A stretch of 61,566 bases of DNA. Origin: Chloroflexota bacterium (GTDB lineage Bacteria; Chloroflexota; Anaerolineae; Aggregatilineales; UBA2796). The DNA is taken from positions 1-61,566 of the forward strand of contig JBDTVG010000179.1 in assembly GCA_040007395.1 (NCBI GenBank). Direction: 5' to 3'. The first letter of the stretch is position 1, and each line of letters starts with the position of its first letter. The translations under genes and the position numbers were made by a program. The notes under the pieces were generated by a model. That model had not been told where the DNA came from. It did no database searches and saw nothing but the letters and a program-made list of their open reading frames with translations. Of this stretch, positions 15,524-45,800 are shown piece after piece.

Positions 15524-15608
15524 AACAAATTGATGTATTTTATTAAAGCAAAATAAATCTATTTTGTCAATAAAAGCGAGTCGAAATAGAATATACATCA
15601 ATTTGTTG
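15524..15608. promoter_or_regulatory. Pair of perfect 16-bp inverted repeats (caacaaattgatgtat / atacatcaatttgttg) bracketing an AT-rich 53-bp spacer in a divergent intergenic region.
   Basis: Read directly from the sequence. Located between the HTH gene (minus) and the cargo genes (plus). Confidence 0.35.
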
Positions 15609-16031
15609 ATGTATATTGAGCGTTGAAAATGAGTGAAGAACTTGAAATAAAGCGGATGGTGGCACGGCTCATTGACCTTGCGAAACTCTTAGCCGAAGTA
15701 GAGCAGCAAGATAACACCAAATTAGTGCAACCCTGCCAATCGATTCTGGATCGACCCCTCACAAAGCCGGCAGTGGAAAAGAAAGAGTCTCCCCAACCCA
15801 AAAGCGGAACTCGCTAAGGAACTACTCAACTGACAATATTTCGGCACCCCCACACTACTTGGCGCATAGCTCCAAAATCTGACCGCCCTCTATAAGCCCT
15901 TCAAAATTGTCGCTGCACAAGCGGCATTTTGGCTTATTGCCCATAAACATCCACTAGCGCTTTTGATAATTATTATATAATCAGGCTAGTGTCTCTCTAG
16001 GGCCTGTCTCACACATCAAAAGGATGTCCGC

Positions 16032-21891: not shown

Positions 21892-21985
21892 CCGTCCGTC
21901 GCCACAACCGAAGCTATAAGGTAAGCCCACGCTGTGTTCGGCAGCGTGGGCTTTTTCGTGTCTCGTTTGAGTTGAGGAGTATGAA

Positions 21986-25617: not shown

Positions 25618-26368
25618 CCCCGACAATACCCTGACCGAGATCGTTCTGGTGGGGTTGGGCGGGACGGGAAGCCAGTGGGCGCGGACGATCTGCCGCATCG
25701 TCTGGGATCTCCGCCGACGGCGACAGCATGTGCCAACTATCCGCTTTGTAGACCCCGACAAAGTAGAAGCTAAAAATGTAGGTCGTCAGATGTTCACGCA
25801 AGCTGATATAGGCTACTACAAAGCGGAAGTCCTCGCCCGACGTTTCAATCTGGCCATGGGCCTGAACATTATCTGGCATAATGCACCATTCGATACTGAG
25901 CAACATACGCAGGGGCATGGCACAGTATTGTGTGGAGCCGTCGATAATCATTTAGCTCGCCTTGAGTTGTCGAAAGTCAAAGGGGTCTGGATTGACAGTG
26001 GCAATGCGGCTAGCAGTGGGCAGGTCATCATTGGCTGTTCGAGCGATAAGTCAGAGGTGCTTCGCAGCATCGAGTCAGGCCGATTCAGCCGTCTGCCCAA
26101 CGCGGCATTAGTCTTTCCAGCACTGCTGGAACCAGAGCCAGAACCTGTGCCTACGCCGACCCTCGACTTATCCTGCGCCGATCTGATGGAGAGCGGTGAA
26201 CAGCGGCTTTTGGTAAATGACCTGATGGGCCATGTGGCGGGAGAATATACTTTCAAGCTCTTGAACCGCCTACCCATCTATTCGTTTCTCACGTTCGTCG
26301 ATGCCGAGGGGTTAGCAATACGGAGTGTCCCCATTACGAAGGACGACCTGCTGGCCTACCTCAACTAA
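25595..26368 (+). CDS. ThiF/MoeB/E1-like adenylyltransferase (ubiquitin-activating-enzyme superfamily).
   Basis: Rossmann VLVGLGGTGSQ, the DPDKVEAKNVGRQ (D-x-D-x-v-e-x-sNL-nRQ) motif, and LCGAVDNHLARLEL. At about 258 aa it is the size of PRTRC-type ThiF proteins. Confidence 0.8.
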   Translation: MTQVHAFNPDNTLTEIVLVGLGGTGSQWARTICRIVWDLRRRRQHVPTIRFVDPDKVEAKNVGRQMFTQADIGYYKAEVLARRFNLAMGLNIIWHNAPFDTEQHTQGHGTVLCGAVDNHLARLELSKVKGVWIDSGNAASSGQVIIGCSSDKSEVLRSIESGRFSRLPNAALVFPALLEPEPEPVPTPTLDLSCADLMESGEQRLLVNDLMGHVAGEYTFKLLNRLPIYSFLTFVDAEGLAIRSVPITKDDLLAYLN

Positions 26369-27212: not shown

Positions 27213-28841
27213 ATGCACGCGATTGCACTTTTTATCTATGGTACCGAAATGCGACAGGAGCTGTTGTGTATCAAATGCACCCAGCTTGTGCCGACTATCT
27301 TGCTGCGTTTGTTCGGCAACCATGCGTCGGACTTGACATCTTCCCACTCTCCCTACCAATACATCTACATACCAGGTGTGCAGTACCTTGTCCACAGTTT
27401 TCTAATCCTGCAAGTAACAGACGAAGAAAAGAAGGTCGTTGAGACTATCACATGGTCCTATCGAAGCTCGCCACAGACTTTTCTATGGCAGGATAGCCAC
27501 TGGTATGAATTTCCGTTTGGGGATGGCAGTCGAAGTGGTCATCGGGATTATCGTCTCGTCTCTGCTGCGACGTGCGCCACAAGTTATCCGACAGTTCCGG
27601 GTAGCGATGGCCCTTTCGTCATTCCATCGGCGCTGGGATCTGCGCCAAGTTCAGACATCACCATCCAACGCTCTGCCAGAGAAGGAAAGGGCAAGACTTG
27701 GTGGTGGATCGGCGGCAATACAAAACCGGTAAAGGATATTCTGGATGAGGCTGGAGCGCGCTGGTCGCGCCGCCGTCAACAATGGTATTACATTGGTGAA
27801 GTTTTGCCCGTTGCTATCCAAGCCCTTGGCGAAGCGAAACCATCACTTGCTGCTTCAGCCGACCTAGTCCAGTCGCGTTCGGATAGTGGGCTGTTTCCTA
27901 ACAACGGCGGAATCGCCATATCGCAGACGGTCAGTGAATCTCATCGAACTTCACTTGAGCTGTTGCCGGAAAATGCGAACACAACTTCCGCCCCAGAGTT
28001 GGTGCGTTATACAGCAACCCCTGTGGCTGCGATGCCAGCGGAATCCGGGTCGAATGAAGAAAGCGTGATGCGCTCGGTGCAGACCGACGATGTACAGGCA
28101 GCGCTCATCGCGCACATCCATGATTGGGAACGGGGTAAACCTATCCTCATTGATTTCGTGGGATCGCGCAACGCGATTAAACAACTCCTCGCCAAACCCT
28201 TCAACCCCGGCAATATAGGGCGGGGCGATGGGGTGGGATTCATCCTCGTCAATGGCAGCAGTTTCTCCAACTTCCGCTTGCCCGACCTGAATTACAAAGC
28301 AATCTCGGCGAGTCTCAAGAACCGGGCCATCGAAGGGCGCATTGTCTCTCTGGACGCGACTACTGCTGCTCCCAAGCAAGAGTGCTATGTCCTCGTGTCT
28401 GGGCCGATCCGCATTCCCGAAACAGACGATCCGGAAACCGTGGCCGCGATCTGGCAGCGCTATGTCCGTTATCGGCAAGCCCCCAATCGTCCAGAATTTG
28501 CCCGCTATGAACCCACAGCTTGGACAACAGACCTATACAACGTCTATCAAGCCCTGCGTGTGCGACTAGGACGGCCCCTGCATATCGGCTGGATGCCTTG
28601 GCTGTTCCAGCAAGTCGCTGACCAGCAGTTAACTTCTCCCAAACTCGGCTTGAGCGGAGTCATGGTGTGCAAGTATATCGGCGGCTACATCACGCCTAAA
28701 GCCGCTGGTGCCGTCGAGCAAGGTGCCTATCGGCTGACGTGTAGTGAGGTCAGTGAGCTATGGGGTGAGGTGATCATGGCCAATCCCCAGCGGGCGCAAG
28801 GAATTGTGTTCAAGTCTGATGAGAAAGGAGCCGTGTCATGA
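27213..28841 (+). CDS. Hypothetical protein (about 540 aa), translationally coupled to the methyltransferase-helicase gene. Contains a Trp-rich KGKTWWWIGG...ARWSRRRQQWYYIG segment.
   Basis: SD ggagg before the ATG at 27213; the ORF could start earlier (27150 or 27192). The stop overlaps the next ATG by 4 nt. Confidence 0.45.
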   Translation: MHAIALFIYGTEMRQELLCIKCTQLVPTILLRLFGNHASDLTSSHSPYQYIYIPGVQYLVHSFLILQVTDEEKKVVETITWSYRSSPQTFLWQDSHWYEFPFGDGSRSGHRDYRLVSAATCATSYPTVPGSDGPFVIPSALGSAPSSDITIQRSAREGKGKTWWWIGGNTKPVKDILDEAGARWSRRRQQWYYIGEVLPVAIQALGEAKPSLAASADLVQSRSDSGLFPNNGGIAISQTVSESHRTSLELLPENANTTSAPELVRYTATPVAAMPAESGSNEESVMRSVQTDDVQAALIAHIHDWERGKPILIDFVGSRNAIKQLLAKPFNPGNIGRGDGVGFILVNGSSFSNFRLPDLNYKAISASLKNRAIEGRIVSLDATTAAPKQECYVLVSGPIRIPETDDPETVAAIWQRYVRYRQAPNRPEFARYEPTAWTTDLYNVYQALRVRLGRPLHIGWMPWLFQQVADQQLTSPKLGLSGVMVCKYIGGYITPKAAGAVEQGAYRLTCSEVSELWGEVIMANPQRAQGIVFKSDEKGAVS

Positions 28842-31800
28842 GACGCGCTGCAATTGAAAAGATTGGCTACTACCCCATTCCTGATGCGATGATGCACTGG
28901 ATCGTCGCCCAATTGAGCATCGCCGCCGGGGCGACCATTTCGTTCATCGACCCGTGCATGGGCGAAGGGGCAGCACTGAAGATCCTCAAAGATCAGGTGA
29001 AAGCCCATAAGGCTGAAGCCCTAGTCTATGGCTGCGAAATCAGTCGCCAGCGCTATGCCACGGCGCTCCAAACGGTACTGAACGAGCGACGCGAGGGTAT
29101 CAGTCGGCTGGTCAGTGGTGCGGCAGAGTTTATCGACACCAGCAAGCATACGTTCTCGTTGCTGTACCTCAACCCACCCTTTGATGAACGTGGCAAGGAG
29201 CAAAACCGCTGGCTCGAATTGACCGAGGAGTGGCTGGTGCCGGGCGGCTGGTTGATTTTCATCACGACCGAGGACTCCGCCCTTCGACCCGACACGCAGC
29301 GCTTGCTGGATCGCTGCTACGAGCAGGTGGTGTGCTATCGCTATCCAGACGCACAGCGTCATTTCAAGGAAGTGGTTGTCTTTGCCAAGCGTCGGCAGGC
29401 GAATAAGCGTGAGGCAATCCGCTCCGTGATCTACACCGCTAGCAGCCTGGCGACCTTGACCCTGCAAGAACAGTTCAGCTTCGAGGTTCCTGCTAGTAAG
29501 GCTCCGCAGCGCTTCACGATGACGGTGCCGGATCTGGAAGACAGCCTGACTTGTCTCCACGAGATGGGCATCAGCACCACCGCGTTATGGACACGCCTCA
29601 CCCAGTCCGCTTCATTGTCCAGCAAATGGCAGCCTCTCCTTGAACTCGGCGATGGACACATTGCCAATCTCATCAGTTCCGGTGCCTTTGATGGAATGCC
29701 TATCGATGATCCTGACTTGGGTCGCTGCCTGATTACGGGCTACGGCACAAAAGAGAAGACCGAGCCAGTCGTCGAAGTCGATGAGGATGGCATCACCGAG
29801 AAAGAGACTGTCACTGAGATTGCGGTGGTGCATCTGGTGGTGATGAATATCGACACAGGTGAACTGCATAAGTTCAGCAGCCGCGATCCCGGCCGGATGG
29901 AGTCATTCATCCTGCGCCACCTACACACGCTCAAAGCGGCCATTGCCGATACCCTCAAACCTATCTTCGACCCTGAAACGATGTTGGATGCTTACCTGCC
30001 GTATGTGCCACATTTCAAAGCGCCCGGTGTGTTACCTGGTGCAACCCGGCTGCGACTGCACAATGGCGACAAACTGCGTGTGAAAGCGAAACACGATGGC
30101 TATTACTTGGCCCAGCGCGACGAGGGTGAGGCAGTTAAGGTACTCAAGTCTGAGGTGGCCCACCTTTACCAGAATATGCTACCGGCCCAAATCATCAAGG
30201 CCGCGGCGATGGCTTATGCCATGCAGCACACGACGACCAGCGTCATCGAAGTTGGTCAGATGGGTGTGGGCAAAACCAGTACGGGAATGCTGACGTTGTA
30301 CCTGTATCTGGCGAAACAGATCGAACGCGCCATGCTGCCTCTCAAAGACACCTTGCAAAAACTCGGTGAGTTGGAGAGCGATCTGCTTGAGGCACAGCGC
30401 ACAGGCCACCGCCAGCACGTCCGCAGCCTCAAGGAAGCGATCCGATTGACCGAGAAGACGCTGAAAGCGATGTTCAAGATCGTCGTGGTCTGTCCCGGTC
30501 ATCTGGTCAACAAGTGGGCACGGGAAGCGACCACTAACTTCTCCGAGATGCAGATCGGCGGTCAGAAGGCGACGGTCATTATTCCGGGTCGTGCGCCGCA
30601 CCGTGTGACACATTATGAGTTACTCGGCAGCCGTGTGGTTTGCCAGGACTGCGGCGCTGTGGCTGATATTAGCCTGTCCCGTGCAGAGATCTTGAAAGGT
30701 CTCAAGCTCAAGGACAAGCTGCTGCGGTTGAGCCGCCTGAAATGCAGCAATCCTGAGTGCGGACATTGGCTTATCCAGACTTACGAGGACTGTGCTGTTG
30801 AAGACATCGACAATGCTTTCGCGGCACCCGGCTTGACCATCTTGGTACTGTCCAAAGAGGATGCCAAACTCGGTGCCAACTGGGAGGCTGCATTCATCCC
30901 GAAGGCGATGCCGCTCTGGGATGAAGCAGGTCATCTCCAACGCAACGCGGAGGGTCGCCTTCAGACCTATACGGTCGCCCAATGCCCGGAATGCGGGGCG
31001 ATTGCCATGAACCGCAAAGGCGACGAAGCGTTGTCTGTCGAGCAGATCACCGACCCAGATAAGCGCAAGAAATACTACTGCAAAGGCACAGTGCAGCGGG
31101 TCAAGCGCGAAGGGGGCAAAGTCGTCATGGAAGCTCAAACTTTCTATGTGTGGCAGGGCCGCAAATATCAATCGCAGCATCTGCCCGAAGGGACTGATCC
31201 CCAGAAACTCGTTAAGGTGACTCGGATGGTGCCAGCAACCGTAACTGAACGCTGTGGCGCACCCCTGTTTACTTTCACCCGCTTGGGCAGCACAACCAAG
31301 CATTCTAAGATTAGTCCCAAGCCGCGCAACCGTTATGCGTCATGGACACGGGGTGAAGTGTATCCCAATCACGGATCGGCCCGGTGGGAGCTGGCGAAGG
31401 TCATCGCTCGGCAGCATCGTGGCGAGTATCTCCTTGTTATTGATGAATGCCATATGTTCAAGGCGCAAACGTCGATTCAAGGACTGGCAGTACAATGGCT
31501 CATCGAGAGTGCCACGCGCACCATTGCCCTGACGGGGACAATCTTTGGCGGCAAAGCCTCCAGTTTATTCTACCTGCTGTACCGACTCTCACCTCGGTTC
31601 CGCGAAACCTTTGGCTGGAAATCCGTCGAGCGCTTTGTGGATCTGTTTGGTGTCCATGAATACATCACCAAGCGAACCCGCGTAGACAGTGAAGGCACAC
31701 CCAGCGCCTACGGGGCGCATATTAAGAAAACTGAACGCACCGACGAAGGTAATGGGGTCGATCCGTCCATCGTGCGCTGGCTGCTAAGTATTGGGGTGTT

Positions 31801-33310
31801 CCTCACGCTGGACGACTTGGGGATTGAACTACCGGAGAAGCAAGAGCAGTTTCATTTCCTGACTCCGGAACTGGAACTGAAAGCAGGGTTGCATGGCCTA
31901 AGCCAAATCCGGCAGGAGGCTGCCAAGCTCGCCGCCCGCGGCGATTTTTCGCTGTTTTCGGCGTGGATGCAGGCGGCACTGGGCTGGAGTCTCTGCCCGG
32001 ATCAGGATGAGATCTATATGGCCCCTGAGCATCGTCAGAAGGTGGCGAAACTGCTCGTTGAGGGGAAAGTCGAAGAGGCTAGCCTCCATGAGAAACTGCA
32101 TAGCGACCTGTGGGCATCGGCGGTCCCGTTTACCCCGGAGCGTCCCGAAGGCAGGATTGTCCAAGAGATAGCCGATGCCTGCCTGAATGGTTGGCGCGAT
32201 TTGGGTGACCGGTCGGTGGTGTATGTATCCGGCGTAAAGCGGCCTGCCAACAAACACCTCTATCACGCGATGAAACGGCGCGGTCTCAAGCCGTTCATCC
32301 TAGCGACCCCCGGCGATATGGAAGTGGTTAAGTGGTGTGCGCCAGAGGACTTCGCCCGCTGCGATCTGGAAGACCGGGAAGCGGTGATCACCGAGGCGCT
32401 CGAACACAAAGACAGCAATGTCCTCATCGTCAATCCACCGCTGGTAGCCACTGGTCTGGATCTGATTGCCTTCAATCACCTGCATTTCTGTGGTGTGCCG
32501 ACCTACAGTGTCTACCTCTTCGAGCAGGCGATGTGTCGTCTACACCGTCCGGGCCAGCAAAAGAAGGTCACAATCCACTTCTGGGTCTACGGGTGGAATC
32601 CGACAGAGGGCAACGCCAAAGAGAACGAACTACAGGCGTTAGCCATGGCGGTCATGTCAGACAAAGTGCGGGCTTCGGCAGTTGTCTCCGGCAGTGTCGG
32701 CGCAGCGCTAGCCGCGCTTAACCAGACACAGGGCGACATCATGAATACCTTGCGTGAGTTGCTGCTCAGTGGCGAAGCCGACCAGATTACCGTGGCTGAG
32801 ACGAGCGACCAAGTGATTTTCAAAGAAGCGCTGCGCGTAAACCCACTCTATGCCAAAATCGAGGCACTCGTCGAGCAATACGATGATGCACGGCAACCTT
32901 TTGTCGAGGCAAGTGTACCGGAGCGATTTATGCCAATGACCCCTGTTATCTATCAGCCCGAACTGACTCCTGCGACGGCTGAACCACTGCTGGTCATTGC
33001 CGTAGAACCGGCTTCCCCATTGGAGCCTGATTGGAAAGGCGATCCCTTGCTGCTCCTGCTGGCGGATTTGGGCGGGAGTATCACGAATATCTCCAATACC
33101 GTGTTTGCTATCCAACTACAAAAGCCAGCGCGTTCGCCCAAAGTTAAGGCACCACGCCGCAAACGGCGTGTAAATCTATTGGATGCGCCTGACGACCTGC
33201 CAAAGCCTCCCCAAGTGCGCTGGCTGCCTGATCCTTGCCTAGATCCCATTCGTGAAACTACGCCCAACGGCACACCTTTGATGGAAGTCGTGCAGCTTGA
33301 GTTGTTTTAA
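28838..33310 (+). CDS. Giant fusion protein: N-terminal N6-adenine DNA methyltransferase plus a SNF2/DEAD-like helicase with inserted zinc ribbons. Typical of plasmid/ICE anti-restriction and transfer modules.
   Basis: MTase motif I FIDPCMGEGAAL and motif IV NPPF. Helicase DExH box LVIDECHMF and motifs V/VI (LIVNPPLVATGLDL; QAMCRLHRPGQ). CxxC pairs: CQDCGAV...CSNPECGH, CPECGAI...YYCKG. Confidence 0.85.
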   Translation: MRRAAIEKIGYYPIPDAMMHWIVAQLSIAAGATISFIDPCMGEGAALKILKDQVKAHKAEALVYGCEISRQRYATALQTVLNERREGISRLVSGAAEFIDTSKHTFSLLYLNPPFDERGKEQNRWLELTEEWLVPGGWLIFITTEDSALRPDTQRLLDRCYEQVVCYRYPDAQRHFKEVVVFAKRRQANKREAIRSVIYTASSLATLTLQEQFSFEVPASKAPQRFTMTVPDLEDSLTCLHEMGISTTALWTRLTQSASLSSKWQPLLELGDGHIANLISSGAFDGMPIDDPDLGRCLITGYGTKEKTEPVVEVDEDGITEKETVTEIAVVHLVVMNIDTGELHKFSSRDPGRMESFILRHLHTLKAAIADTLKPIFDPETMLDAYLPYVPHFKAPGVLPGATRLRLHNGDKLRVKAKHDGYYLAQRDEGEAVKVLKSEVAHLYQNMLPAQIIKAAAMAYAMQHTTTSVIEVGQMGVGKTSTGMLTLYLYLAKQIERAMLPLKDTLQKLGELESDLLEAQRTGHRQHVRSLKEAIRLTEKTLKAMFKIVVVCPGHLVNKWAREATTNFSEMQIGGQKATVIIPGRAPHRVTHYELLGSRVVCQDCGAVADISLSRAEILKGLKLKDKLLRLSRLKCSNPECGHWLIQTYEDCAVEDIDNAFAAPGLTILVLSKEDAKLGANWEAAFIPKAMPLWDEAGHLQRNAEGRLQTYTVAQCPECGAIAMNRKGDEALSVEQITDPDKRKKYYCKGTVQRVKREGGKVVMEAQTFYVWQGRKYQSQHLPEGTDPQKLVKVTRMVPATVTERCGAPLFTFTRLGSTTKHSKISPKPRNRYASWTRGEVYPNHGSARWELAKVIARQHRGEYLLVIDECHMFKAQTSIQGLAVQWLIESATRTIALTGTIFGGKASSLFYLLYRLSPRFRETFGWKSVERFVDLFGVHEYITKRTRVDSEGTPSAYGAHIKKTERTDEGNGVDPSIVRWLLSIGVFLTLDDLGIELPEKQEQFHFLTPELELKAGLHGLSQIRQEAAKLAARGDFSLFSAWMQAALGWSLCPDQDEIYMAPEHRQKVAKLLVEGKVEEASLHEKLHSDLWASAVPFTPERPEGRIVQEIADACLNGWRDLGDRSVVYVSGVKRPANKHLYHAMKRRGLKPFILATPGDMEVVKWCAPEDFARCDLEDREAVITEALEHKDSNVLIVNPPLVATGLDLIAFNHLHFCGVPTYSVYLFEQAMCRLHRPGQQKKVTIHFWVYGWNPTEGNAKENELQALAMAVMSDKVRASAVVSGSVGAALAALNQTQGDIMNTLRELLLSGEADQITVAETSDQVIFKEALRVNPLYAKIEALVEQYDDARQPFVEASVPERFMPMTPVIYQPELTPATAEPLLVIAVEPASPLEPDWKGDPLLLLLADLGGSITNISNTVFAIQLQKPARSPKVKAPRRKRRVNLLDAPDDLPKPPQVRWLPDPCLDPIRETTPNGTPLMEVVQLELF

Positions 33311-33332: not shown

Positions 33333-33370
33333 ACAGGATGTCATCGCACGATGACATCCTGTTTGTCGCA
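33333..33370 (+). terminator. Intrinsic terminator after the methyltransferase-helicase gene (caggatgtcatcg cac gatgacatcctg, then tttgtcgc).
   Basis: 13-bp perfect stem followed by a T-rich run. Confidence 0.5.
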
Positions 33371-33497: not shown

Positions 33498-34421
33498 ATG
33501 AATGCTGAAACGGAAACTTTCATTCGTGACCTATTTACGGGCTGTAGTACAGAGCCAGTTTTCTTGACGCTAACTGCCATTCACCCCGATGGCGATAAAC
33601 CTACGCCATCGCGTCATGTGCGGCTAGGCGATACTGTCGCCCTTGAACAGGCCTTGTCTGGACTACACAAAGCGAATGATCTAGGATGGGGTGCTTATAT
33701 CGGCATTGCGCCGCGCCATCAGGACTTGGGCCGTTGGTCACGCGGTCGCAAAAGCAATCTGGCTTGTTTGCCCGCGTTATTTGTGGACATTGACCAGCCC
33801 GATAATGCGCTTATCCGTCTGGGCTGGTTTGATCTCCCGGCCTCATGTATTTTGCATAGCGGGCGCGGGTATCACGCCTACTGGTTCCTCGACCCACCAA
33901 CAACAGATTTTATCCAGGCTGATAAGCTGCTGCATGGTCTGGCTCAACGTCTCAATGGTGATGCAGCCTTGTCAGTAGCGCAAAGTATGCGTCTGCCAGG
34001 AACCATAAACACCAAATTGGGGCGCGCTCATGCCGTGTGTCATTTCGTGGGCTACCATCCTGAACGGCGCTACGATCTGACTGAGTTCAAACCCTTCCTG
34101 CCCAAAGTTCTATCGTACACGAACCGTCGCCACACTTGGGAAACTCAGGAACGCAACACCGCTAAACTATCGCCATTAGCACTTGATACGTTGACCGATG
34201 CTGTGCTTTACCAGTTAGAGGGGCGCTGGCGCTCTAACGGATTCATCGGTGCGCTTTGTCCACTGCCGCATCTGAGAGATAGACCAGGAATGCATTTCAG
34301 CTATCACGCTGAGACCGGCTGGGGCCATTGTTTTGGGAAACACGGAAAAATATCCCCAATGGACCTAGAGGAGTTGTTAGGTGTATCTGTACAGCATCAT
34401 TCGTCGGTTGGCGCAGCATGA
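33498..34421 (+). CDS. Primase-polymerase (PrimPol/bifunctional primase) like protein.
   Basis: LFVDIDQPD...ILHSGRGYHAYWFL resembles the prim-pol catalytic motifs (DxD...SGxGxHxY). Sits in a mobile-element context. Confidence 0.55.
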   Translation: MNAETETFIRDLFTGCSTEPVFLTLTAIHPDGDKPTPSRHVRLGDTVALEQALSGLHKANDLGWGAYIGIAPRHQDLGRWSRGRKSNLACLPALFVDIDQPDNALIRLGWFDLPASCILHSGRGYHAYWFLDPPTTDFIQADKLLHGLAQRLNGDAALSVAQSMRLPGTINTKLGRAHAVCHFVGYHPERRYDLTEFKPFLPKVLSYTNRRHTWETQERNTAKLSPLALDTLTDAVLYQLEGRWRSNGFIGALCPLPHLRDRPGMHFSYHAETGWGHCFGKHGKISPMDLEELLGVSVQHHSSVGAA

Positions 34422-36121: not shown

Positions 36122-36489
36122 CAGAATCGCCCTTTATCAAGCGTTATCTCGACCAGTGGGATTACCAGAGAATCCAACTTAGCCGCAGCCTGACGAAAAG
36201 CAGCTTCGTCCAAGACGAAGGGCTGCCAGTCACTATGGGATGTAGGCAAAGGAATAAGCATGGGCTGACGAGGGGCGTAAATGGCTTCGGTTGCCATATC
36301 AAAGATGATATCTACTGGCAGCTCATCTGGCGTTCGACTTGTGATCTGGTAGACGAGCTGCCAAATCATTGTCCCCATGACAGCATAAGCAAGCTGCCGA
36401 TACTCATCGGTAACTAGGTCGTATTGAATCAGCCACGCATAGAAAAGCTGGGTTGTTCGCCCGTATGCCTCTATCCAATCCACAAGCAT
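36121..36489 (-). CDS. Hypothetical protein (about 122 aa).
   Basis: SD gggagg before the ATG at 36489. Stop adjacent to the start of the next gene. Confidence 0.35.
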   Translation of the reverse strand: MLVDWIEAYGRTTQLFYAWLIQYDLVTDEYRQLAYAVMGTMIWQLVYQITSRTPDELPVDIIFDMATEAIYAPRQPMLIPLPTSHSDWQPFVLDEAAFRQAAAKLDSLVIPLVEITLDKGRF

Positions 36490-36673
36490 GGAGCCTCCCT
36501 TCACTTCAATGGTCGGTAATGATTGTGCGATTAAGGCGTGGAGCCGACAAAACCTATCAGGTCAGGCAGTGGTCAGAAATGGCACTAAAAATCAATGTAG
36601 GCTCTATAACTTGTACTCCAACGCGGGTCGCCATTGAATATTGTTTTGCCAAGTTAGTGAGTTATCCACCGCT

Positions 36674-36942
36674 TCCAGCGGCCGCGCCGCTGGCCATGGT
36701 CGCCATCGAGGCGACCATACGATGTTGCATTGCAACATCGCTACTCACCGCGCCCGTCCGGTGTCACCTCAGGGGTGACGGACGCGGGAGTAGCCAGCTA
36801 AAGCTGGCCCCCGTCGCTGCGCTCTGGGGGAGTACGGTGCGCTCTACCGCGCACCGTGCAGGGCAAGTCGCCGACTTGCCCTGCATCGTCGTTGCCTCAT
36901 CAGGCAACGACACAACACCCTGCCGCTGGCGCGACAGGTGTT
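36674..36942. other. Cluster of seven or more consecutive perfect hairpins in about 270 bp. Candidate origin of transfer (oriT), single-strand origin, or structured RNA, located about 300 bp upstream of the relaxase module.
   Basis: Palindromes ccagcggccgcgccgctgg, gatgttgcattgcaacatc, ccggtgtcacc/ggtgacgg, gccagctaaagctggc, gtacggtgcgc/gcgcaccgtgc, gcagggcaagtcg/cgacttgccctgc, gtcgttgcc/ggcaacgac and caacacc/ggtgttg. Confidence 0.4.
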
Positions 36943-37260
36943 GATATAAGACAGCCTGTAAGGTGCTTTGCTTGGTCATCGCCTGACGAGGCTATCACAG
37001 ACTACCTTATGCCGTTGTGACCCGATCTAAGCAAATGGGTCTCTTGGCAGCGTTTGTAGCGTATGGCAAAGGGCCGCCAGTGGCGGTTGAAAGGCACATC
37101 CAGCGAGTCGCCAAGCGGCACATTTCACAACGTGTCAAGAATCTATCGGGTCAGGTTGTGGTCAGAATTGGGACTAAAGCTAGCGAGGGGCTGCGGGCAA
37201 GAGAGCCGTACACCTATATACTTTTGGACCATAGGGTAATGGTAAACAAGGTTCGATCCG

Positions 37261-37716
37261 ATGTCCAAACGCCGGATATTTACTATTCAGCACACCGCCT
37301 ACTTCAGTACCGAGATGTGGGCGCTGCTTCAACAACTTGCCAACCATCGAGGCAATGGCTGTACTGAAAATGACCTTATCCGTGAAGCAGTGCGCGGTCT
37401 GATCGATAATGAAAGTGGCATCATTGGCAGTCGCCGTCACTTCCAAAAATCCCTTCAAGAGCGTGTTGAGGCGCTTGAAACGACTCTTTCAATGGCCTCA
37501 GAACAATCCACGCATTTAATCGTGTTTTATCTGAATATCATCATTCAACTACTCGCCTTTGGCTTGGCTCACCTCATTTCACTGTTGAGCAAGCATCAGA
37601 TTTCTCCACAACAGCTTATTCAGAGAGCTGTCATCGAAGCCCGAAAAGAAGAACGGGTCTTTGCCGAACAAGTCCAAGCAGTTCGAGCGATGGACATTCC
37701 TGAGAAGTCCTCATGA
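37261..37716 (+). CDS. Putative relaxosome accessory protein (about 150 aa). Its stop overlaps the relaxase start.
   Basis: Position and ATGA coupling to the relaxase. N-terminal region compatible with a small DNA-binding fold. Inference. Confidence 0.35.
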   Translation: MSKRRIFTIQHTAYFSTEMWALLQQLANHRGNGCTENDLIREAVRGLIDNESGIIGSRRHFQKSLQERVEALETTLSMASEQSTHLIVFYLNIIIQLLAFGLAHLISLLSKHQISPQQLIQRAVIEARKEERVFAEQVQAVRAMDIPEKSS

Positions 37717-38450
37717 GCAAAGCGACCATTGTCTTCGATCTGGCTTTCTCATCTTGGAAAGGACAGCGTGGATCTGGCTCGACTGGCTATACCGAGCTAA
37801 AAGCCCGTTTGAAATACTTTCAATATCGAAATGATCGCAATGGGCATATCCCGCAAGAAGAAGGCTTGGAACGCTGGACAGATCGCGGCTTGGGGCCGAG
37901 TTGGGGCGACATCTTGAGCAATTGTCAAGCGCTTGGTTCGGAGAAAGTGTTGGCGTGGACGCTCGTGGTCAGCCCCGCCCCAGACTTGATGGCGCTCGTA
38001 CCGGAAGGGCAGCGTCCTGAGCTAGTCAAGTCTATCACGGAGCAGATTGTCGAGACCTATTACACCGAACGTGGTGTCGAGGTACCTGAATACTCCTACG
38101 TGTTACATGACCGACTTACGAACGGCAGCCAAAACGGTGGTGACAGAATACAGCAACTGCATACCCATGTGGTGCTGCCAGGCACGGTTCCCGTTGTCGA
38201 AGGAGGGCGCGAACCCTTCTATAACCGCAGTCGCAAAGGCCATTTTGAGCAGCTTCGAGACATTACCAACACGACCTTTGCAACGGCATTGGACAAGCGC
38301 ATCGGCCCTGAGTGGCGAAATTTAAGAGTGCCTGAAAGACCCCTGCTCGAACCAATCGTCCCCCTACCTGAAATTAGCGACGCTGATGGGCGCAGTGTTT
38401 CTGAACTGGATCGTTGGTTCCCGCGTCCCCCTACGCGGGAGATAGAGTAG
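37713..38450 (+). CDS. Small relaxase/mobilisation nuclease (MobA/VirD2-like, MOBP/Q-type).
   Basis: Motif I-like segment with Tyr (SSWKGQRGSGSTGYTELKARLKYFQYR) and a histidine-triad-like motif (IQQLHTHVVLPG). Confidence 0.55.
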   Translation: MSKATIVFDLAFSSWKGQRGSGSTGYTELKARLKYFQYRNDRNGHIPQEEGLERWTDRGLGPSWGDILSNCQALGSEKVLAWTLVVSPAPDLMALVPEGQRPELVKSITEQIVETYYTERGVEVPEYSYVLHDRLTNGSQNGGDRIQQLHTHVVLPGTVPVVEGGREPFYNRSRKGHFEQLRDITNTTFATALDKRIGPEWRNLRVPERPLLEPIVPLPEISDADGRSVSELDRWFPRPPTREIE

Positions 38451-38461
38451 AAGGCGCTTAT

Positions 38462-38704
38462 ATGTGGCATAAATTGCATGACACGCTCAAAGGCTATGTC
38501 CCGTTGATGATCGGCGCAGGGACAATTATCTTGGTTATCGATAGCATCGTTTTCTTTTTGCATCGTCTTTTAGGCCTCGACAAGGGGACAGCGTTCTACT
38601 TGGCTGTTCTACTGCTCTGCTGTATCGCCTATCTGGCGCTTTATCACCAAGCTTATCACCCTCAACCAGACGAGGCAGATTCCGAAACATCACAAGACCG
38701 CTAG
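38462..38704 (+). CDS. Small two-TM membrane protein (about 80 aa) between the relaxase and the coupling protein.
   Basis: SD agaaggcg before the ATG. Two hydrophobic helices (LMIGAGTIILVIDSIVFFL; AFYLAVLLLCCIAYLALY). Confidence 0.35.
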   Translation: MWHKLHDTLKGYVPLMIGAGTIILVIDSIVFFLHRLLGLDKGTAFYLAVLLLCCIAYLALYHQAYHPQPDEADSETSQDR

Positions 38705-38739: not shown

Positions 38740-40917
38740 ATGTTCTTCTGGCTGTTCACGGAAGGTCGAGCACTGGTATCCGGCCTGCTTTGTCCACTCA
38801 GCGTTTTGGCGGTGTTGATTCCAGTCGCGGTGACATTCATTTTAGGGGTGGGTATTCAACGCCGTGCCGAAGGTACACCACTCAGTACCAACGGTTGGTT
38901 ATCGTTGGCTAAATGGGTGGCTTTTATTGCGTCTACTATTGGCGCAGCGTCGCTCTATATCTCGCTGCTTGGTGGACTGGCCGTTCAGCGAGCGACAGTT
39001 CACCAAAAGCCATGGGTCGGGTTGCTCAGCGCATTGGTCGGTGGACCTATGACGATCAACCAGCCACGCCTGCTCATCATGGGGAGTGGCTTGTGGATTA
39101 CCCTGCTGTTCTTGAATATGGCGCTCTGGCAAGGGTTGCGGAATGGCGGTTGGTTGCGTGAGTGGATCGACACCCTGCGCCGTCCTAGCCAGCAGCGGGG
39201 CGAAATGGGATCGGCCCATCTGTGTACGCGCCGGGAATATCGCCGTTATCGCCGCGTTGACCCGGAAGGAATCACCTTTTTGGGTGCGTACTGGGGCGAA
39301 CGCAACCTACGTCTCGATGTGGGCTGGGGTCGTTTTTGTCTGAGTAGTGAAGATGCCGCAAGGGGTGTTTTAACGCTTGGTTCGCCCGGTTCAGGGAAAA
39401 CGCAGGCCGTCATTTTACCTGTGATTGCTGACCGAATGCTGGCAGGACACAGCCTGATTGTGGCTGATCCGCAAGGTGAATTGACCCCGCATGTGATGCG
39501 CTTTGCCAAACGAACACACCATTTGGTCGTAGTGCATGATCCCACCAGTCGCGATGGCCCACGCTACAACCTCGCCGCCGGCCTCACCACTATTCCTGCG
39601 GCGGCTGCTATTGCTAAGGTGTTGATCCCCGGTACCCAAGGTGACAATAAATTTTGGTCCGACGCTGCCACCGATCTGCTCTCCGCTTGCTTGATTCGCT
39701 TTGACAACCTCGGTGAGATAAAAGCCGCGTTGGATGATCCCATGACGCTGTCGAAAAAGCTGACCGAGCCACGCGATGACGCAACGCTGGCCGCCAGCGC
39801 TTTCATTGCCAGCGTATCGAGCGATGGCAAAGTCGCGTCCAATACGATTGCGACCCTCGGCACAGCCTTGACGGGCTGGGCCTCTGCCGAAGTCCGCAAG
39901 AATACGAGCGTCTCTGATTTCAATGCGGATTTGATCGTATCGCAAAAGACGATTGTGGTCCTGACCTGCCCCGGTGAGATGCGGGAAGTGTATGCGCCGT
40001 ATCTTGGCGCAACCCTGCGTAAATTGATGCGGGACTTGGATCGCATCGGGGAACAGAATAAAGATCCGCGTCAACCCGGAGCGCTGCCTGTGCCAGTCGG
40101 CATCATCCTCGATGAATTTCCCACACTGGGGCGACTCGATTCGCTTGTGTCTGACGTGAACCTCGTGCGAAAACGAAGGATAAGTATTCTCATTGGTGCC
40201 CAGACCAAAGGCCAATTTCACCTGATCTATGGCGACGAGGCGACCAAAGCACTCTTAACCGGCTTGGCGACGCAAATCGTTTATGGGGCGTGTGACCATG
40301 ACACCGCCGAGTTTTACAGCAAAGCTTCTGGGACTGCCACCGTTGATACCGATCCCGATCCACATAAAGCCAGCCTGCGGCAGCGGCCCTTACTTACTGC
40401 TGATGAAATCGTTAATCCACAGCACGGTAACTGCACGATCTTTTCGCGTTTTGTAGAAGCTAACCATGCACTGCAAGTTATCTTTCAGGCCGAGCTAACC
40501 CGGCTGTACGAACGCGAAGATTGGCAGGAGCATCTGGCAGCTTCGCAAAATAACGAACCCATGATCTTAAAACGTGGCATTTGCCTGACGTTGCCTACTG
40601 TGGCACAATCTGAGGCAGTATCGAGCTTCTCACCACCACCAACGACCTTATCCTCTCCACCGCCTGCATCCCAACATGCTATGCAGACCACAACCGCACA
40701 GCGTTTGAGTCAACCCAGCGCAGATGAGTTGGATGCTATTTTTGGGTCCTCTGAAACCGATTTAGCGATGGTTGAACAGTTGCAGAAAGTGCGACAGCAG
40801 CGTGAAATAGCCAATCACACAAATGTGTTACAGGCGGCAGGTATCATAACGACTACCGTAGACACGTTTAAGAGCAATCTGCATGGAACAGGAGCGCAGA
40901 AAAATGACCTCGACTGA
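38740..40917 (+). CDS. Type IV coupling protein (VirD4/TraG/TraD family).
   Basis: N-terminal TM helices, Walker A GSPGSGKTQ, the T4CP DPKGE motif as DPQGEL, and Walker B ILDEFPTLG. Confidence 0.85.
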   Translation: MFFWLFTEGRALVSGLLCPLSVLAVLIPVAVTFILGVGIQRRAEGTPLSTNGWLSLAKWVAFIASTIGAASLYISLLGGLAVQRATVHQKPWVGLLSALVGGPMTINQPRLLIMGSGLWITLLFLNMALWQGLRNGGWLREWIDTLRRPSQQRGEMGSAHLCTRREYRRYRRVDPEGITFLGAYWGERNLRLDVGWGRFCLSSEDAARGVLTLGSPGSGKTQAVILPVIADRMLAGHSLIVADPQGELTPHVMRFAKRTHHLVVVHDPTSRDGPRYNLAAGLTTIPAAAAIAKVLIPGTQGDNKFWSDAATDLLSACLIRFDNLGEIKAALDDPMTLSKKLTEPRDDATLAASAFIASVSSDGKVASNTIATLGTALTGWASAEVRKNTSVSDFNADLIVSQKTIVVLTCPGEMREVYAPYLGATLRKLMRDLDRIGEQNKDPRQPGALPVPVGIILDEFPTLGRLDSLVSDVNLVRKRRISILIGAQTKGQFHLIYGDEATKALLTGLATQIVYGACDHDTAEFYSKASGTATVDTDPDPHKASLRQRPLLTADEIVNPQHGNCTIFSRFVEANHALQVIFQAELTRLYEREDWQEHLAASQNNEPMILKRGICLTLPTVAQSEAVSSFSPPPTTLSSPPPASQHAMQTTTAQRLSQPSADELDAIFGSSETDLAMVEQLQKVRQQREIANHTNVLQAAGIITTTVDTFKSNLHGTGAQKNDLD

Positions 40918-41212
40918 GCGTCCAGCCCTGACAAAAAGACGCATGGTGCAGTTAATCCATTATCGCACTCGGCTTACCCACAAACAGGTCACCAACGTAC
41001 TGGAAGCGTTCATCGAGTTGGTCAGTCAGGAAATTGCCACAGAAGGGCGTGTGGAGCTAGAAAACTTCCTGACGCTCGATGTAAAAACGGTGAAACATCG
41101 CAGTCCTTACGGGAGTGCGGTGATTGCTTATAAGGCAGTCCGCTGCCGACCCGGACGACGGTTGCGTGCAATGCTGCGTGAAAACCCGCCAGGAAACCAT
41201 AAACGACGGTAA
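40904..41212 (+). CDS. HU/IHF-family DNA-bending protein.
   Basis: LTKRRMVQLI...KQVTNVLEAF...GRVELENFLTLDVKTVKHRSPYGSAVIAYKAVRCRPGRRLR matches the HU/IHF arm and body. The ATG at 40904 is preceded by caggagcg. Confidence 0.7.
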   Translation: MTSTERPALTKRRMVQLIHYRTRLTHKQVTNVLEAFIELVSQEIATEGRVELENFLTLDVKTVKHRSPYGSAVIAYKAVRCRPGRRLRAMLRENPPGNHKRR

Positions 41213-42670: not shown

Positions 42671-42824
42671 CCCCTAAACAAAGACATTTCCCATTCAAAA
42701 AAGCTTCTCTGTTATACACGGGAAAGGGCTTGAGCTATTATGTTCCTCAGGCGCTGCTAGTTCCCCTACTAGTCAAAGTTGCTTTTTCATCTAATTCTGA
42801 ACACTTACCTTGAGAAGGCTACTC

Positions 42825-45800
42825 ATGACCTATCGGTGGATCACGTCGCTGCGCCGTTCGTTGAATCTTGTCCTTATCCTCGGCCTCGGTATCAACCCAC
42901 TGACACCGATTATTCTCTTGAGAGCCTCGCTCGAAAACGGAAAATCTACTGCCAGTGTTGTCAGTCCCGAAATTGCTTCGGCGGCAGGAGCAACAGCATC
43001 AGCGATTATACCCCCCTCGATACCTGCCAAGTCGCCCGTAGCGAGTGTGTCATCTGCCACCAGCAATTCATGCGATACTAGCCTTGCTATAAAACGGGTG
43101 GGTTTTATGAACATCGGTACTAGTACCGGTTGGACTTATTCCTCTTCAATCTCTGGTAATGGGCGTTATGTCGTTTATACAACCCACAGTAGTCCTTATA
43201 ATCTCAATGAAGATGACTATGAGGATATTAGTCTTTTTGACAGACAAACATGCACAAACACCGGGATTATCTCTACTAGATATGTACCCAACAACTCATT
43301 TGCAATGGAACCTGCCATTTCAGCAGATGGGCGATATGTCGCTTTTATTTCTGGTGGTAGCGCTATAGTACCTAATGATACGAATAATGTTGCAGATGTC
43401 TTTGTCTATGATAGAGACACTCCACAAGGAGGCTCTCACTTTACACGGGCCTCAGTTAGCTCTACGGGGATACAGGCGAATGGTCCTTCTATCGGAAGTA
43501 ACTGGCCTATTTATAATCGCACACTATCAATTTCAGCCGATGGACGTTATGTAGCATTTATTTCTGATGCGAGTAATTTATCGCCAAGCGATACTAATCA
43601 AGATCCAGATGCTTTTGTGCATGATATGGTAACAGGCGAAACATCCCGTGTATCGGTACAAACGGGTGGTGGGCAAGTAGATGGTAACTCTGTGGGAATA
43701 GATGCTATTTCCATTTCTACACCGACTTACGACAATGCACAGCTTCCACAGGATGGCCCTATTGTGGCGTTCTCCTCGAATAGCACGCAACTGGTCTCAT
43801 CTGATAACAATAATTACTCTGACGTTTTTATCCACAACATGAAAACAAATATAACAAGTCGTATTTCTACAAACATAAATGGACAAGAGGCAAATAATAA
43901 TAGCGATAGTCCGTCAATTTCGGCTAACGGTGGCTATGTTGTTTTTCGCTCCGATGCCACAAATTTAGTTGATAATTCATATAATAACCAAGGGGATCTA
44001 TTCCTCTATAAAATTCCAACCGCTACCTTAGCCGCCACTATCACACTAATTACGATGGGTTATGACGGATCTCACACGGATTATGGGTCACGTTTGCCCG
44101 ATATTTCAGCCAATGGTCGGTTTATAACTTTTGCTAGCCAAGCAACCCATTTGGTTTCTGGCTATGACATCAGCGGTGCTCAGTATAATTTCTATAGATA
44201 TGACAGTAAAACAAAAACAACGACCCTATTGAATATAGCTTTTGATGGTCGCTATTTGGGTGGATTAGCACTAACAGCTTCACTTGATTTTTCGGTCACA
44301 ATTTCTGATGATGGGATCAATGCTGCATTTCCTTTTTGGAATTACCTTGGCCCACATAGACTAACCCCACCTGAGTTCCTTGATATATTTCCTCACGCTA
44401 ACCCATCTATCTTTGTGACAAGTATTTTACCGAGCAATCTCGATGCCGTCTCTGGGGATAACCTAGATAGTACCTGCTTGGACTCTAATACCGCTCATCA
44501 GGCGCAAGCCTTCGTGGGTCATTCGCCCAATATTAACCCGCTCACCGGAAATTATGCCTATTCGACCACTGATCTGACCATCCACAGTGAAGGCGATCCG
44601 ATCAGCTTCCGTCGGATCTATTCGACCCATCGGCTCGGTTACACCACTGATAACGACGATATGCTTGGCCCGGGTTGGACTCATAATTTTGATATACGCC
44701 TTCTTTTCAGTTCGCCAGATGCGGTGACTCTCCAATCCTGCAATGGTGCCCGACAGCGTTTCAACAGGGATGGAAATGGCATCTATACGCCGGAGCCAGG
44801 TCTACTGGCGAGTTTAACGGTCGCAACAGGATCGAATGGTGGTTATGTCGTCAAGCTACGTAATCAGACTACATACGTATTCAATGCTCAGGGGCAACTC
44901 ACTCAAATCACACGTGTACCCGGTCTGAAGACTGAGTGGAACGTTTTAAATTTTTCCTATTACACTAATCTCCCCGCAACTGCCTCTAGCGTTGAAAAGC
45001 GCTTGGCATGGATTAAATTTGACAATTTTCGCAACGAAAATGGCACACAACCAGAGCGCTATCTAAGATTTTGCTATTACGATAGCGGGCGGTTGAACTC
45101 GGTGATCGACACTCAGTTGCCGGACTCAACTGCGCCAGACTACTGGAACGATTGCCCAGAGACTAGCAGTACAAATATCGTTCGCGCAAAAGTGAAATTT
45201 ATTTACTCAAATGGTTATGATAATAGCCTTGGCAATTTAATCGCTGCGCGTGATGTTCGTGGACAGGTATGGGACTATATCTATGGACAAACTATTGCAG
45301 ATAAGCCATATCTGACCAAAGTACTCAGCCCATTAGATTACCCCGAAGGTGCAGACCAACCGTGGATAGAGAAACAAGAATATAACTCTGATGACGGGCG
45401 GCTTCTAAGACAATTCAACGGCAATAACAATTTAACTGTCGAATTGTCGCCTCAATCTAATAGTAAACTTCGCATTGATGTTAAGGATGGTCGGGCTAAC
45501 ACACAAACTTATTTCTACAATACGCTGAACAGCTTCGCGGGTATCGAATACCCATTTAAACCCGTAGGAGCGACCGCAACTACCACAATACAAACTGAAA
45601 CACGCTACGACGAAAATTATCGACCAGTGTATCGTAAAGATGGCAACGACAATGTCACCCGGTTAGAGTGGAGTGCCAACGGGCACAACCTGAAATCGAT
45701 TACGGACGCACTGAATCAGACTACGAGCTACGAATACGATACTGCTACTAACAACCTGCTAAAGATTTCCAATCTTGCAGGGAAGAGAAGGACCACTGAG

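Follow-up and report, generated by a model that had tools for sequence, protein, structure and literature searches.

An array of covarying DNA hairpins beside a relaxase-like gene module in a Chloroflexota element: a candidate origin of transfer

Among the described sites that an HUH relaxase recognizes in single-stranded form is the origin of transfer (oriT) of pMV158 (MOBV family, relaxase MobM), an AT-rich stretch of 43 nt with three overlapping, mutually exclusive inverted repeats, which is bound as a hairpin or cruciform and overlaps the mob promoter region (PMC5863519). [quoted passage not shown] Here we describe a folded element in a 61,566-nt contig of a Chloroflexota bacterium (JBDTVG010000179.1 of assembly GCA_040007395.1; 'the window' denotes this whole stretch). 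It is an array of hairpins at 36675–36943, upstream of genes for a candidate relaxase, a type IV coupling protein (T4CP) and an HU-like protein. With moderate confidence, we read the array as the oriT region of an integrated mobilizable element, with or without an added sso role, because it keeps a constant orientation to the adjacent module, lies upstream of the promoter-operator region of that module, and appears to be under selection as DNA hairpins.

The array is ~270 nt long and consists of 10–11 consecutive hairpins that follow one another without interruption, as established by reading the sequence and with a repeat finder (Table 1). When the whole window was scanned mechanically for hairpins with a perfect stem of 8 bp or more and a loop of 3–8 nt, 16 were returned, 5 of which fall within 36675–36911; exclusion of overlaps removed one further array hairpin that shares a single base with its neighbor. 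The G+C content is 0.59–0.66 across the array vs. ~0.50 in its flanks. Relative to dinucleotide shuffles, none of which equaled it, the array folded with z = −11.5 (+ strand) and −9.6 (− strand) as RNA, and with z = −11.0 and −11.4 on the two strands as DNA. The predicted RNA fold has a multi-hairpin layout that is closed by a long-range stem. The covariance model described below found a single copy in the 61.5-kb window.

An earlier note on this DNA had reported a dense cluster of stem-loops about 300 bp upstream of a mobilization gene set and had proposed secondary-structure prediction as a check. The cluster is real and unique in the window, its folding z-score is about −11 on either strand, and the distance from its 3′ end to the first open reading frame (ORF) of the module, which starts at 37261, is 318 bp. 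The same note judged the ORF at 36453–36944, which runs across the array, to be noncoding, and the homologous arrays agree: stems vary among them through compensatory changes, and loops through indels whose lengths would break a reading frame by not being divisible by three, leaving the ORF unsupported as a gene.

The downstream module encodes a protein of 245 aa. This protein matched no Pfam or NCBIfam family, even at E-values up to 10, and a phmmer search of PDB sequences gave no match; its homologs form 231 protein clusters (E ≤ 0.001), all unnamed and mostly from Anaerolineae. In the family alignment, Y35, H132, H150 and H152 are invariant, in the contexts LKY..QYR and LHD...LHTHVVLPG, so that an invariant tyrosine accompanies an HxD...HxH motif. 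An AlphaFold (AF2) model (predicted local distance difference test, pLDDT, 80) was compared with the PDB using Foldseek. The 14 best matches were relaxase domains of TrwC and TraI (pCU1, pKM101), with E = 2e-5 to 4e-4, a probability of 1.0 and a TM-score of about 0.44, and MobM came next. Because the invariant Tyr/His motif and the TrwC/TraI fold matches coincide, we accept the protein, on the strength of this model, as an HUH relaxase of an unclassified family. Its sequence matched no profile of the MOBF (TrwC/TraI) family in Pfam or NCBIfam.

The 151-aa protein encoded before the relaxase adjoins it in nearly all loci, a case of conserved synteny. Weak but coherent evidence suggests that it is ribbon-helix-helix (RHH)-like: its Pfam match to Antitox_RHH was sub-threshold (E = 0.14), and a profile of 17 homologs, searched against the PDB, returned RHH proteins as all of its top seven matches, over residues 9–53 and at sub-threshold E-values of 0.05–0.33. 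The relaxosome-accessory, relaxase, T4CP and HU genes that the earlier note had proposed are therefore supported, the T4CP and HU-like protein by Pfam, the relaxase by motif and fold, and the accessory protein, as RHH-like, on weak evidence.

To follow the array beyond the window, we scanned one genome per species (185,579 species genomes), which yielded 278 confirmed relatives of the relaxase, and kept 80 loci (numbered with the prefix L below). The RHH-relaxase-T4CP-HU module is conserved in nearly all 80 loci, whereas the genes upstream of it are not. Many loci have clusters of perfect hairpins 550–900 bp upstream of the relaxase, and folding shows that these share a common architecture. 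The 3′ half of the array was detected by nhmmer in 31 of the 80 genome loci as well as in the window, always upstream of the mobilization (mob) genes and in their orientation; the same arrangement holds for 17 of 38 metagenome loci, where the RHH-relaxase pair follows within about 330 nt, and for 7/7 further loci of the window clade. As would be expected of an oriT, the window array thus lies in cis beside relaxase and accessory genes, although this linkage is not universal.

When RNAalifold was applied to a plain MAFFT alignment of the arrays, the hairpins were out of register and only three helices were found. We used instead a hand-specified structure and a covariance model of the 3′ half, in which the helices H_A to H_E contribute 42 pairs. 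The window array scored 49 bits against this model (E about 1e-11); 29 of the loci from the genome scan matched it too, as did all 38/38 metagenome contigs that had been retrieved with a short H_A-H_B pattern. Covariation was measured on 58 distinct array sequences from genomes and metagenomes of Anaerolineae/Chloroflexota. Standard pairs occupied 92.1% of the cells, 35 of the 42 pairs showed double changes, and 422 cells were compensatory. The covariation score was 0.443, compared with 0.133 in shuffles (0 of 500 reached the observed value) and 0.03–0.07 when pairing partners were slid by 1–3 columns. An alignment that is fitted to the structure of a model inflates the percentage of paired cells, but it cannot create double changes. 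The order of the ten hairpins is kept, with compensatory changes, across relaxases that are only 45–60% identical. In the divergent clade of the window, seven further loci (L001, L081, L083, L122–L125; relaxases 57–64% identical) have the same ten hairpins, and here a plain MAFFT alignment of seven loci left 90% of cells paired, with double changes in 14 pairs and a score of 0.194 vs. 0.068 in shuffles.

The hairpins are not all conserved in the same way. In the window clade, HP1 is kept, with compensatory changes at one pair, and HP2 is conserved in sequence (100% paired; in L124 a single T-A pair has become A-T). HP3 is 98–100% paired with five pairs changed on both sides, and in L001 and L124 its stem has a wholly different sequence but an unchanged shape. 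The long imperfect stem that follows HP3 is the least supported part of the array (69% paired in the window-clade MAFFT alignment); other clades have a three-way junction at its position. H_A is the most sequence-conserved hairpin. Over the 58 sequences, its C-G, A-T and G-C stem pairs and its TAAA loop are invariant while the remaining two stem pairs covary freely, and in the window clade it is 100% paired. No other bases of the array are universally conserved, and loop sequences vary between clades. H_B, which itself contains the C-rich stretch (CCACC/CCCCC) found 3′ of H_A, is 99.6% paired with 3 covarying pairs in the 58 sequences, and its loop sequence is conserved within clades. Double changes affect 8/9 pairs of H_C, which is also supported in the window clade, 12/12 pairs of H_D and 10/10 pairs of H_E in the same 58 sequences.

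A very stable predicted structure of many hairpins with a long-range closing stem, strong covariation and a fixed orientation to the neighboring genes could also belong to a stand-alone structured noncoding RNA (ncRNA) or to a long structured leader of mobile elements. The pairing itself argues otherwise. Structured RNAs accept G-U pairs at several-fold higher rates than those seen here, and only on the transcribed strand. Of 2406 pair cells, 2177 were Watson-Crick, 39 were G-T (1.6%), 69 were A-C (2.9%) and 121 were other mismatches; in a smaller set, the corresponding counts were 1033, 8, 25 and 48. G-U would therefore amount to 1.6% if the + strand were transcribed and 2.9% if the − strand were. 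On either strand, wobble pairs were no commoner than other mismatches, and pair changes went straight from Watson-Crick to Watson-Crick. (Counts of G-U from minimum-free-energy folds, 149 on the + strand and 136 on the − strand, proved too noisy and were replaced by these model-based counts.) Both strands of the array fold almost equally well. The array region had no match in Rfam at the gathering threshold; the best sub-threshold match, to the radC motif (19.6 bits vs. a threshold of 40, E = 0.22), was not reproduced in six homologous loci, and we rejected this identity for the array.

Signals of transcription point in the same direction. A promoter and terminator scan found nothing that brackets the array, with promoter-like matches at chance level and no bounding terminator, and the apparent promoter of the RHH operon lies downstream of the array. 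The genes on the left side are unrelated between loci, which argues against a cis-regulatory leader. For an RNA, one could cite a weak leftward promoter-like match (37267–37239), which could drive transcription toward the − strand genes at 36504–34847, and the fact that most mismatches, when read on the − strand, are G-U or G-A. On balance, an RNA function appears quite unlikely. Given the scarce wobble, the equal folding of the two strands, the absence of bracketing signals, the position upstream of the promoter and the lack of an Rfam family, we conclude from these alignments that selection appears to act on DNA hairpins, in single-stranded DNA or as cruciforms.

Selection on folded DNA is likewise compatible with a priming site resembling an sso or a single-strand initiation site (ssi), which, once folded in the strand that is displaced or transferred, would attract RNA polymerase or a primase to begin complementary-strand synthesis, while the nick site (nic) would be some short sequence elsewhere. 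Like plasmid and ICE ssos, the array has a length of ~300 nt, many stem-loops, few conserved unpaired bases and a fixed orientation; it is extensively folded over a few hundred nt and near a relaxase, as the described ssos are near a relaxase or dso (compared with PMC4595007). The element encodes a protein (33498–34421) with a weak RepB_primase match (E = 0.023), and in L111 an array without a relaxase lies 100 nt upstream of a PriCT_1/DUF927 primase-helicase gene, the N-terminus of whose product is 38% identical to that protein. A replication-type site would also more easily explain such orphan arrays, to which we return below. However, only 4 of about 65 arrays have a primase-like gene nearby. 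The hallmark motifs of ssoA are RSB and CS-6 (TAGCGT in the terminal loop), and inspection of the alignments found neither; TAGCGA is present in some clades only, within the H_A stem and not in a terminal loop. Close linkage, in a fixed orientation, to the relaxase and to the operator-promoter of the RHH gene suggests a relaxosome site instead, as do the invariant stem bases of H_A.

There is a slight trend toward the − strand that would suit a priming site. On the + strand, mismatches were mostly A-C, C-T and C-C (151) vs. 55 that contain G; these read as G-T, G-A and G-G on the − strand, which are the least destabilizing DNA mismatches in nearest-neighbor data. By DNA folding energy, the − strand was more stable in 35/50 arrays, by a mean of 2.6 kcal/mol, in sequences that are related and not independent. 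The bias is small, and we take a − strand preference as a weak hint and a lead only. A priming site in place of an oriT is unlikely, though worth keeping in mind, and an sso-like role could also be a second function of an oriT region.

The flanks of the array and the region before the RHH-like gene bear further on its relation to the module. The two direct repeats (DR1 and DR2, Table 1) that the earlier note had seen on either side of the array are real and slightly longer than it had them, with 39 nt each and 85% identity. DR2 sits 83–121 bp upstream of the RHH-like gene. A degenerate consensus of the repeats has two matches in the window, DR1 and DR2, and zero in 100 shuffles. Equivalents flank the array on both sides in L081 (left GGGTCAGAACTGGGTCAGAACTGG, right CAGTGGGTCACAACCGGGTGAGAACTGG) and L123 (left GTAGAGCAGAACTTGTCCAGAACTG, right GTAGAGCAAAACTTGTCCAGAACTG), and at least on the right side in L083, L122, L124 and L125. 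In all clades, two or three phased repeats of ~11–12 nt per locus lie between the array and the RHH gene, and a −10-like box (GACAAT/CACAAT), also conserved in all clades, lies ~45 nt before the RHH start codon and is preceded by two phased ~12-nt repeats. This places the array upstream of the apparent operon promoter and outside the leader. Judged by sequence, the 11-bp phasing of the repeats and their position in the promoter region fit operators of the RHH protein. Relaxosome accessory sites are usually of this kind, and PcfF is a reported example (PMC6514445).

Table 1. Features of the hairpin array, its flanks and the downstream module, with positions in the window.
Feature	Coordinates	Strand	Sequence or composition	Remarks
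DR1, left direct repeat	36551–36589	+	GGTCAG units at 36560–36565 and 36571–36576, 11 bp apart	Putative site of the RHH-like protein
Spacer DR1-HP1	36590–36674		Lower G+C	Not kept in related loci; homology between related loci ends at the first hairpin
HP1 hairpin	36675–36693		CCAGCGGC-CGC-GCCGCTGG	8 bp perfect stem; left edge of conserved array
HP2 hairpin	36696–36718		ATGGTCGCC-ATCGA-GGCGACCAT	9 bp perfect stem
HP3 hairpin	36720–36740		CGATGTTGC-ATT-GCAACATCG	9–10 bp perfect stem
Long imperfect stem	36741–36793		CTACTC...GAGTAG; inner hairpin GTCACC-TCAG-GGGTGAC	From predicted folds
H_A hairpin	36794–36807		CCAGC-TAAA-GCTGG = AGCTAAAGCT	
H_B hairpin	36808–36830		CCCCC / 13-nt loop GTCGCTGCGCTCT / GGGGG	5-bp stem, large loop
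H_C hairpin	36834–36857		ACGGTGCGC-TCTACC-GCGCACCGT	9 bp perfect stem
H_D hairpin	36857–36885		TGCAGGGCAAGTC-GCC-GACTTGCCCTGCA	13–14 bp; longest perfect stem in array
H_E hairpin	36888–36911		GTCGTTGCCT-CATC-AGGCAACGAC	10 bp perfect stem
H_F hairpin	36913–36943		CAACACC...GGTGTTG	Right edge of array; bears family-wide ...ACGCACCCC-like motif
DR2, right direct repeat	37140–37178	+	GGTCAG units at 37149–37154 and 37160–37165, 11 bp apart	Putative operator and accessory-protein site
RHH-like protein	37261–37716	+	151 aa, RHH-like N-terminus	Putative relaxosome accessory protein and autoregulator
Candidate HUH relaxase	37713–38450	+	245 aa	Unclassified family; by motif and fold
Small hydrophobic ORF	38414–38704	+	96 aa	Overlaps 3′ end of relaxase gene
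T4CP (VirD4/TraG/TrwB family)	38740–40917	+		Pfam T4SS-DNA_transf 8e-34, TrwB_AAD_bind, TraG-D_C; NCBIfam agrees
HU-like DNA-binding protein	40883–41212	+		Pfam Bac_DNA_binding 5e-11, HU-HIG; conserved last gene of module

The 96-aa ORF of the module may encode a small membrane protein. Searches with tblastn place counterparts of it at the equivalent site in L002 and L003, where L081–L083 and L123–L125 have called ORFs of 64–93 aa that match it in position. Another contig of the same metagenome-assembled genome encodes a second relaxase, a paralog with 57% identity (P0034), and in several genomes the module is present three or more times, as in Ca. Flexifilum breve (L045, L065, L075) and ANAER1 (L017, L041, L062).

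Closely related loci show how the array is exchanged. HP1 is the exact left limit of array conservation, which stops on the right after H_F. Where two loci have the mob side in common (92–96% identity; such pairs include L048-L101 and L084-L098), their left-hand homology breaks off either in HP1, at about −130, or where H_A starts, at +8. Where they have 900 nt of left flank in common (87–97% identity), the right-hand break falls in H_F, between +138 and +166 of the core. L084 takes part in both kinds of pair. It is 91–97% identical to L099 and to L117 over the 900-nt left flank and diverges from both at +138 to +166, and it is a mosaic in which the left flank and array are 97% identical to L099, and the array and mob genes 96% identical to L098. 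The same left flank and array abut chromosomal polysaccharide genes in L099, L117 and L088, but RHH-relaxase genes in L084. From the breakpoints at both edges and the L084 mosaic it follows, on the evidence of these alignments, that the array is a discrete module and a crossover point. Recombination hot spots are known to occur at oriT regions. A study of IncA/C plasmids reportedly deals with an oriT and such a hot spot (PMC5587640).

The sharp breakpoints and the two kinds of right-hand neighbor raise the question of whether the array is an element end or a recombination or attachment site, serving, for example, HUH-mediated integration or rolling-circle-type movement and not a conjugative origin as such. 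Some relaxases do catalyze site-specific integration at oriT-like sites. Yet ordinary homologous recombination gives the same breakpoints at the edges of conserved islands, and the window element has its own large serine recombinase by a tRNA cluster, 22 kb away. None of the elements examined has a second array at its other end. In L097, two arrays of different subtypes lie at 95–238 and 12680–12830, 12.6 kb apart, and each is followed by its own relaxase gene; we considered and rejected the idea that such arrays mark both ends of an element, as the second one belongs to a tandem mob module. This explanation also overlaps with an oriT, in that the nick site itself is a recombination site; as an account in its own right, we regard it as quite improbable.

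If the array is an oriT, its working could be pictured as follows. The hairpins would form when the region is single-stranded, or would extrude from supercoiled DNA. One sequence-conserved hairpin would be the recognition site of the 245-aa relaxase, and the best candidate is H_A, because of its three invariant stem pairs and invariant TAAA loop. The relaxase might then nick a nearby single-stranded stretch, either the C-rich stretch after H_A or one near an edge of the array. The RHH-like protein would bind the 11-bp-phased GGTCAG repeats in DR1 and DR2, the HU-like protein of the module would bend or hold the structured DNA, and the T4CP would deliver the nicked strand. The remaining hairpins, which keep their shape while their sequence is free, would fold the end of the transferred strand for termination and recircularization, and perhaps form a site of complementary-strand priming, in the manner of an sso. 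They may also aid extrusion or melting in supercoiled DNA, or give HU a structured substrate.

Several observations weigh against an oriT. The array alignments singled out no conserved candidate for the nick site, and a search for nic by homology breakpoints gave clusters at both edges (about −130, +8, and +138 to +166) rather than a single site. A blastn search of 36400–37300 against 72,556 PLSDB plasmids found no match. Among the window ORFs scanned, no VirB4-type gene of a type IV secretion system was seen, so that transfer would need a helper or an unknown apparatus. The array is much larger, more GC-rich and more structured than characterized oriTs; compared with that of pMV158, its hairpins do not overlap, it is GC-rich and about seven times longer, and it lies upstream of the promoter and not over it. 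The 39-nt direct repeats were absent when searched for in distant clades, and are thus clade-specific and not a general feature. Finally, the pairing of array and relaxase is incomplete in both directions. In about 45 of the 80 relaxase loci, no array was detected within 4 kb, and the upstream DNA available for them is not unusually structured, so the array is not a universal partner of the family; these loci are often from lower-G+C genomes or have the T4CP-HU pair inverted. Conversely, ~18 of the 38 metagenome arrays, all on contigs that extend 1 kb or more beyond the array, lack an RHH or relaxase gene in the 1–11 kb downstream.

The orphan arrays include those of L085, L089, L105 and L111, which have no RHH or relaxase gene within 6–11 kb. 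Their neighbors are diverse, with insertion sequence (IS) transposases, HsdR-like, DnaE2-like and polysaccharide genes; in L111 they are plasmid-like, with a ParM-like gene, a small gene and the primase-helicase gene. In L046, L049 and L096, array and relaxase are 1.4–5.9 kb apart, with cargo or IS elements in between. Orphan arrays may be oriT-only sites that are mobilizable in trans, or remnants. Copies away from relaxases and beside IS transposases, made of GC-rich intergenic palindromes, also recall selfish or structural repeat clusters of the REP/BIME (repetitive extragenic palindrome/bacterial interspersed mosaic element) or MITE (miniature inverted-repeat transposable element) kind, with no role in transfer. 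Such repeats would be dispersed, whereas the 61.5-kb window has one copy and the copies per genome track the mob modules. The conserved ten-hairpin order with its compensatory changes, and the fixed position and orientation relative to the RHH promoter, make this explanation very hard to credit.

Taken together, the oriT that the earlier note proposed stands in part. The mob module, the conserved array at its 5′ edge, the DNA-like pairing and the phased flanking repeats speak for it, and the failure to find a nick site, the array-less loci, the orphan arrays and the unlikeness to characterized oriTs speak against it. Of the alternatives that the note listed, the single-strand origin still stands, and an ncRNA has become less likely in view of the DNA-like pairing. 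A bolder idea, to which we give only a small chance, is that the array is a self-contained modular ssDNA device: a folded cassette of ~300 nt and ten hairpins that is exchanged as a unit among Chloroflexota elements and combines nicking, termination and complementary-strand priming, or has another role of the folded transferred strand (e.g. end protection), and that works with a previously unclassified family of minimal relaxases. In that case, the orphan copies would mark a hidden network of elements mobilizable in trans. Still more unusual would be a new large structured RNA that is almost without wobble pairs.

The wider window suggests the extent of the element. Three tandem tRNA genes lie at 12665–12893 and another at 3637–3708. 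A large serine recombinase (580 aa, 12839–14581, − strand, with Resolvase and Recombinase domains) abuts the tRNA cluster, 22 kb from the array, and the array-bearing element probably integrated here, so that cluster and recombinase would mark one of its ends. Between the recombinase and the array are genes for a STAND NTPase (912 aa, NB-ARC/TPR, 16032–18770), a DprA-like protein (19888–20835), and YjbR and DUF488 proteins, as well as an adjacent + strand pair, Prok-E2_D (24721–25617) and a ThiF-family protein (25574–26368), which forms a ubiquitin-like conjugation pair of a type known from defense islands. A 1490-aa protein (28838–33310, + strand, transcribed toward the array) begins with a DUF6094 methyltransferase domain and weakly matches SNF2 helicases; large methylase-helicases of this type are often carried by conjugative elements. 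A perfect 13-bp hairpin (33333–33362) follows its gene.

The next protein (307 aa, 33498–34421, + strand) has no significant Pfam match, the one to RepB_primase being weak (E = 0.023). The primase-helicase to which it is 38% identical over the N-terminus has 967 aa (2714–5617 in L111 as oriented), and homologs are also encoded upstream of the arrays in L003 and L037. Beyond the mob module, two response-regulator genes precede a gene for a polymorphic-toxin-like protein of 3708 aa (42810–53936, + strand) with RHS repeats, PD40 beta-propeller repeats, DUF6531 and DUF6443. Elsewhere, the window has isolated long perfect hairpins with stems of 12–15 bp at 2272–2307, 3712–3743, 15590–15617 and 21923–21953; the second is terminator-like, after a tRNA gene and with flanking A/T runs, and the third is an AT-only palindrome.

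Conjugation and mobilization are almost uncharted in Chloroflexota, and our literature searches found no paper on a Chloroflexota relaxase or oriT. The locus described here links a widespread relaxase family, which Pfam and NCBIfam do not detect, with putative accessory-protein sites and a well-defined cis element that has strong comparative support. It thereby offers a concrete way to search the Anaerolineae of wastewater, mats and sediments for mobile elements and for orphan origins of transfer. Should the ten hairpins function together as one architecture, oriT and sso design would prove more varied than known so far, and the array would be a clean example of covariation on DNA, not RNA, structure.

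Several known classes of folded element share features with the array without matching it. GOLLD, ROOL, HEARO and the radC motif are likewise covarying, multi-hairpin elements of several hundred nt on mobile DNA, but the array has no covariance-model match, almost no wobble, two strands that fold equally and no transcription signals. The ssos (ssoA, ssoU, ssoT and ICEBs1 sso1) resemble it in having a few hundred nt, multiple stem-loops, conservation at the level of structure and a place next to the relaxase or dso. They differ in that there is no sequence similarity and no motif of the CS-6/RSB type in the array, which has ten hairpins vs. about three and a strand specificity that is only hinted at. 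The ssiA and ssiB sites of RSF1010 are single hairpins of ~40 nt that the RepB′ primase reads on ssDNA during conjugative establishment. The parallels here are the weak RepB_primase match of the window element and the one orphan array that abuts a primase-helicase gene; the primase link is weak by comparison (E = 0.023) and concerns only 4 arrays.

Among oriTs, that of pMV158 shares with the array the combination of a DNA hairpin and an HUH relaxase, and MobM was the second-best fold match of the 245-aa protein. The array cannot be assigned to a known oriT family, because it has no sequence similarity to one, its relaxase lies outside the profile libraries and its architecture is unlike theirs. 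In contrast to the single recognition hairpin by nic and few repeats of MOBF oriTs (R388 TrwA/TrwC, F, and pKM101/pCU1 TraI), there are 10–11 hairpins here in ~300 nt with 65% G+C, and the relaxase has 245 aa, with no helicase domain and no sequence-level match in Pfam, NCBIfam or the PDB. The order of cis site, RHH accessory gene, relaxase and T4CP, however, is the same, and so is the N-terminal tyrosine with an HxD...HxH metal site; the best structural matches of the 245-aa model are TrwC and TraI bound to oriT hairpin DNA. Inverted repeats occur in both, as do phased direct repeats, which here are putative sites of the accessory protein; a nucleoid protein, IHF, takes part in MOBF systems, and the HU-like protein of the module may do so here. 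The G/T-rich complement of ...ACACCCC may resemble the F-type nic region. By analogy, the array would work like a MOBF- or MOBQ-style relaxosome site, to which it corresponds in gene order and, presumably, in function.

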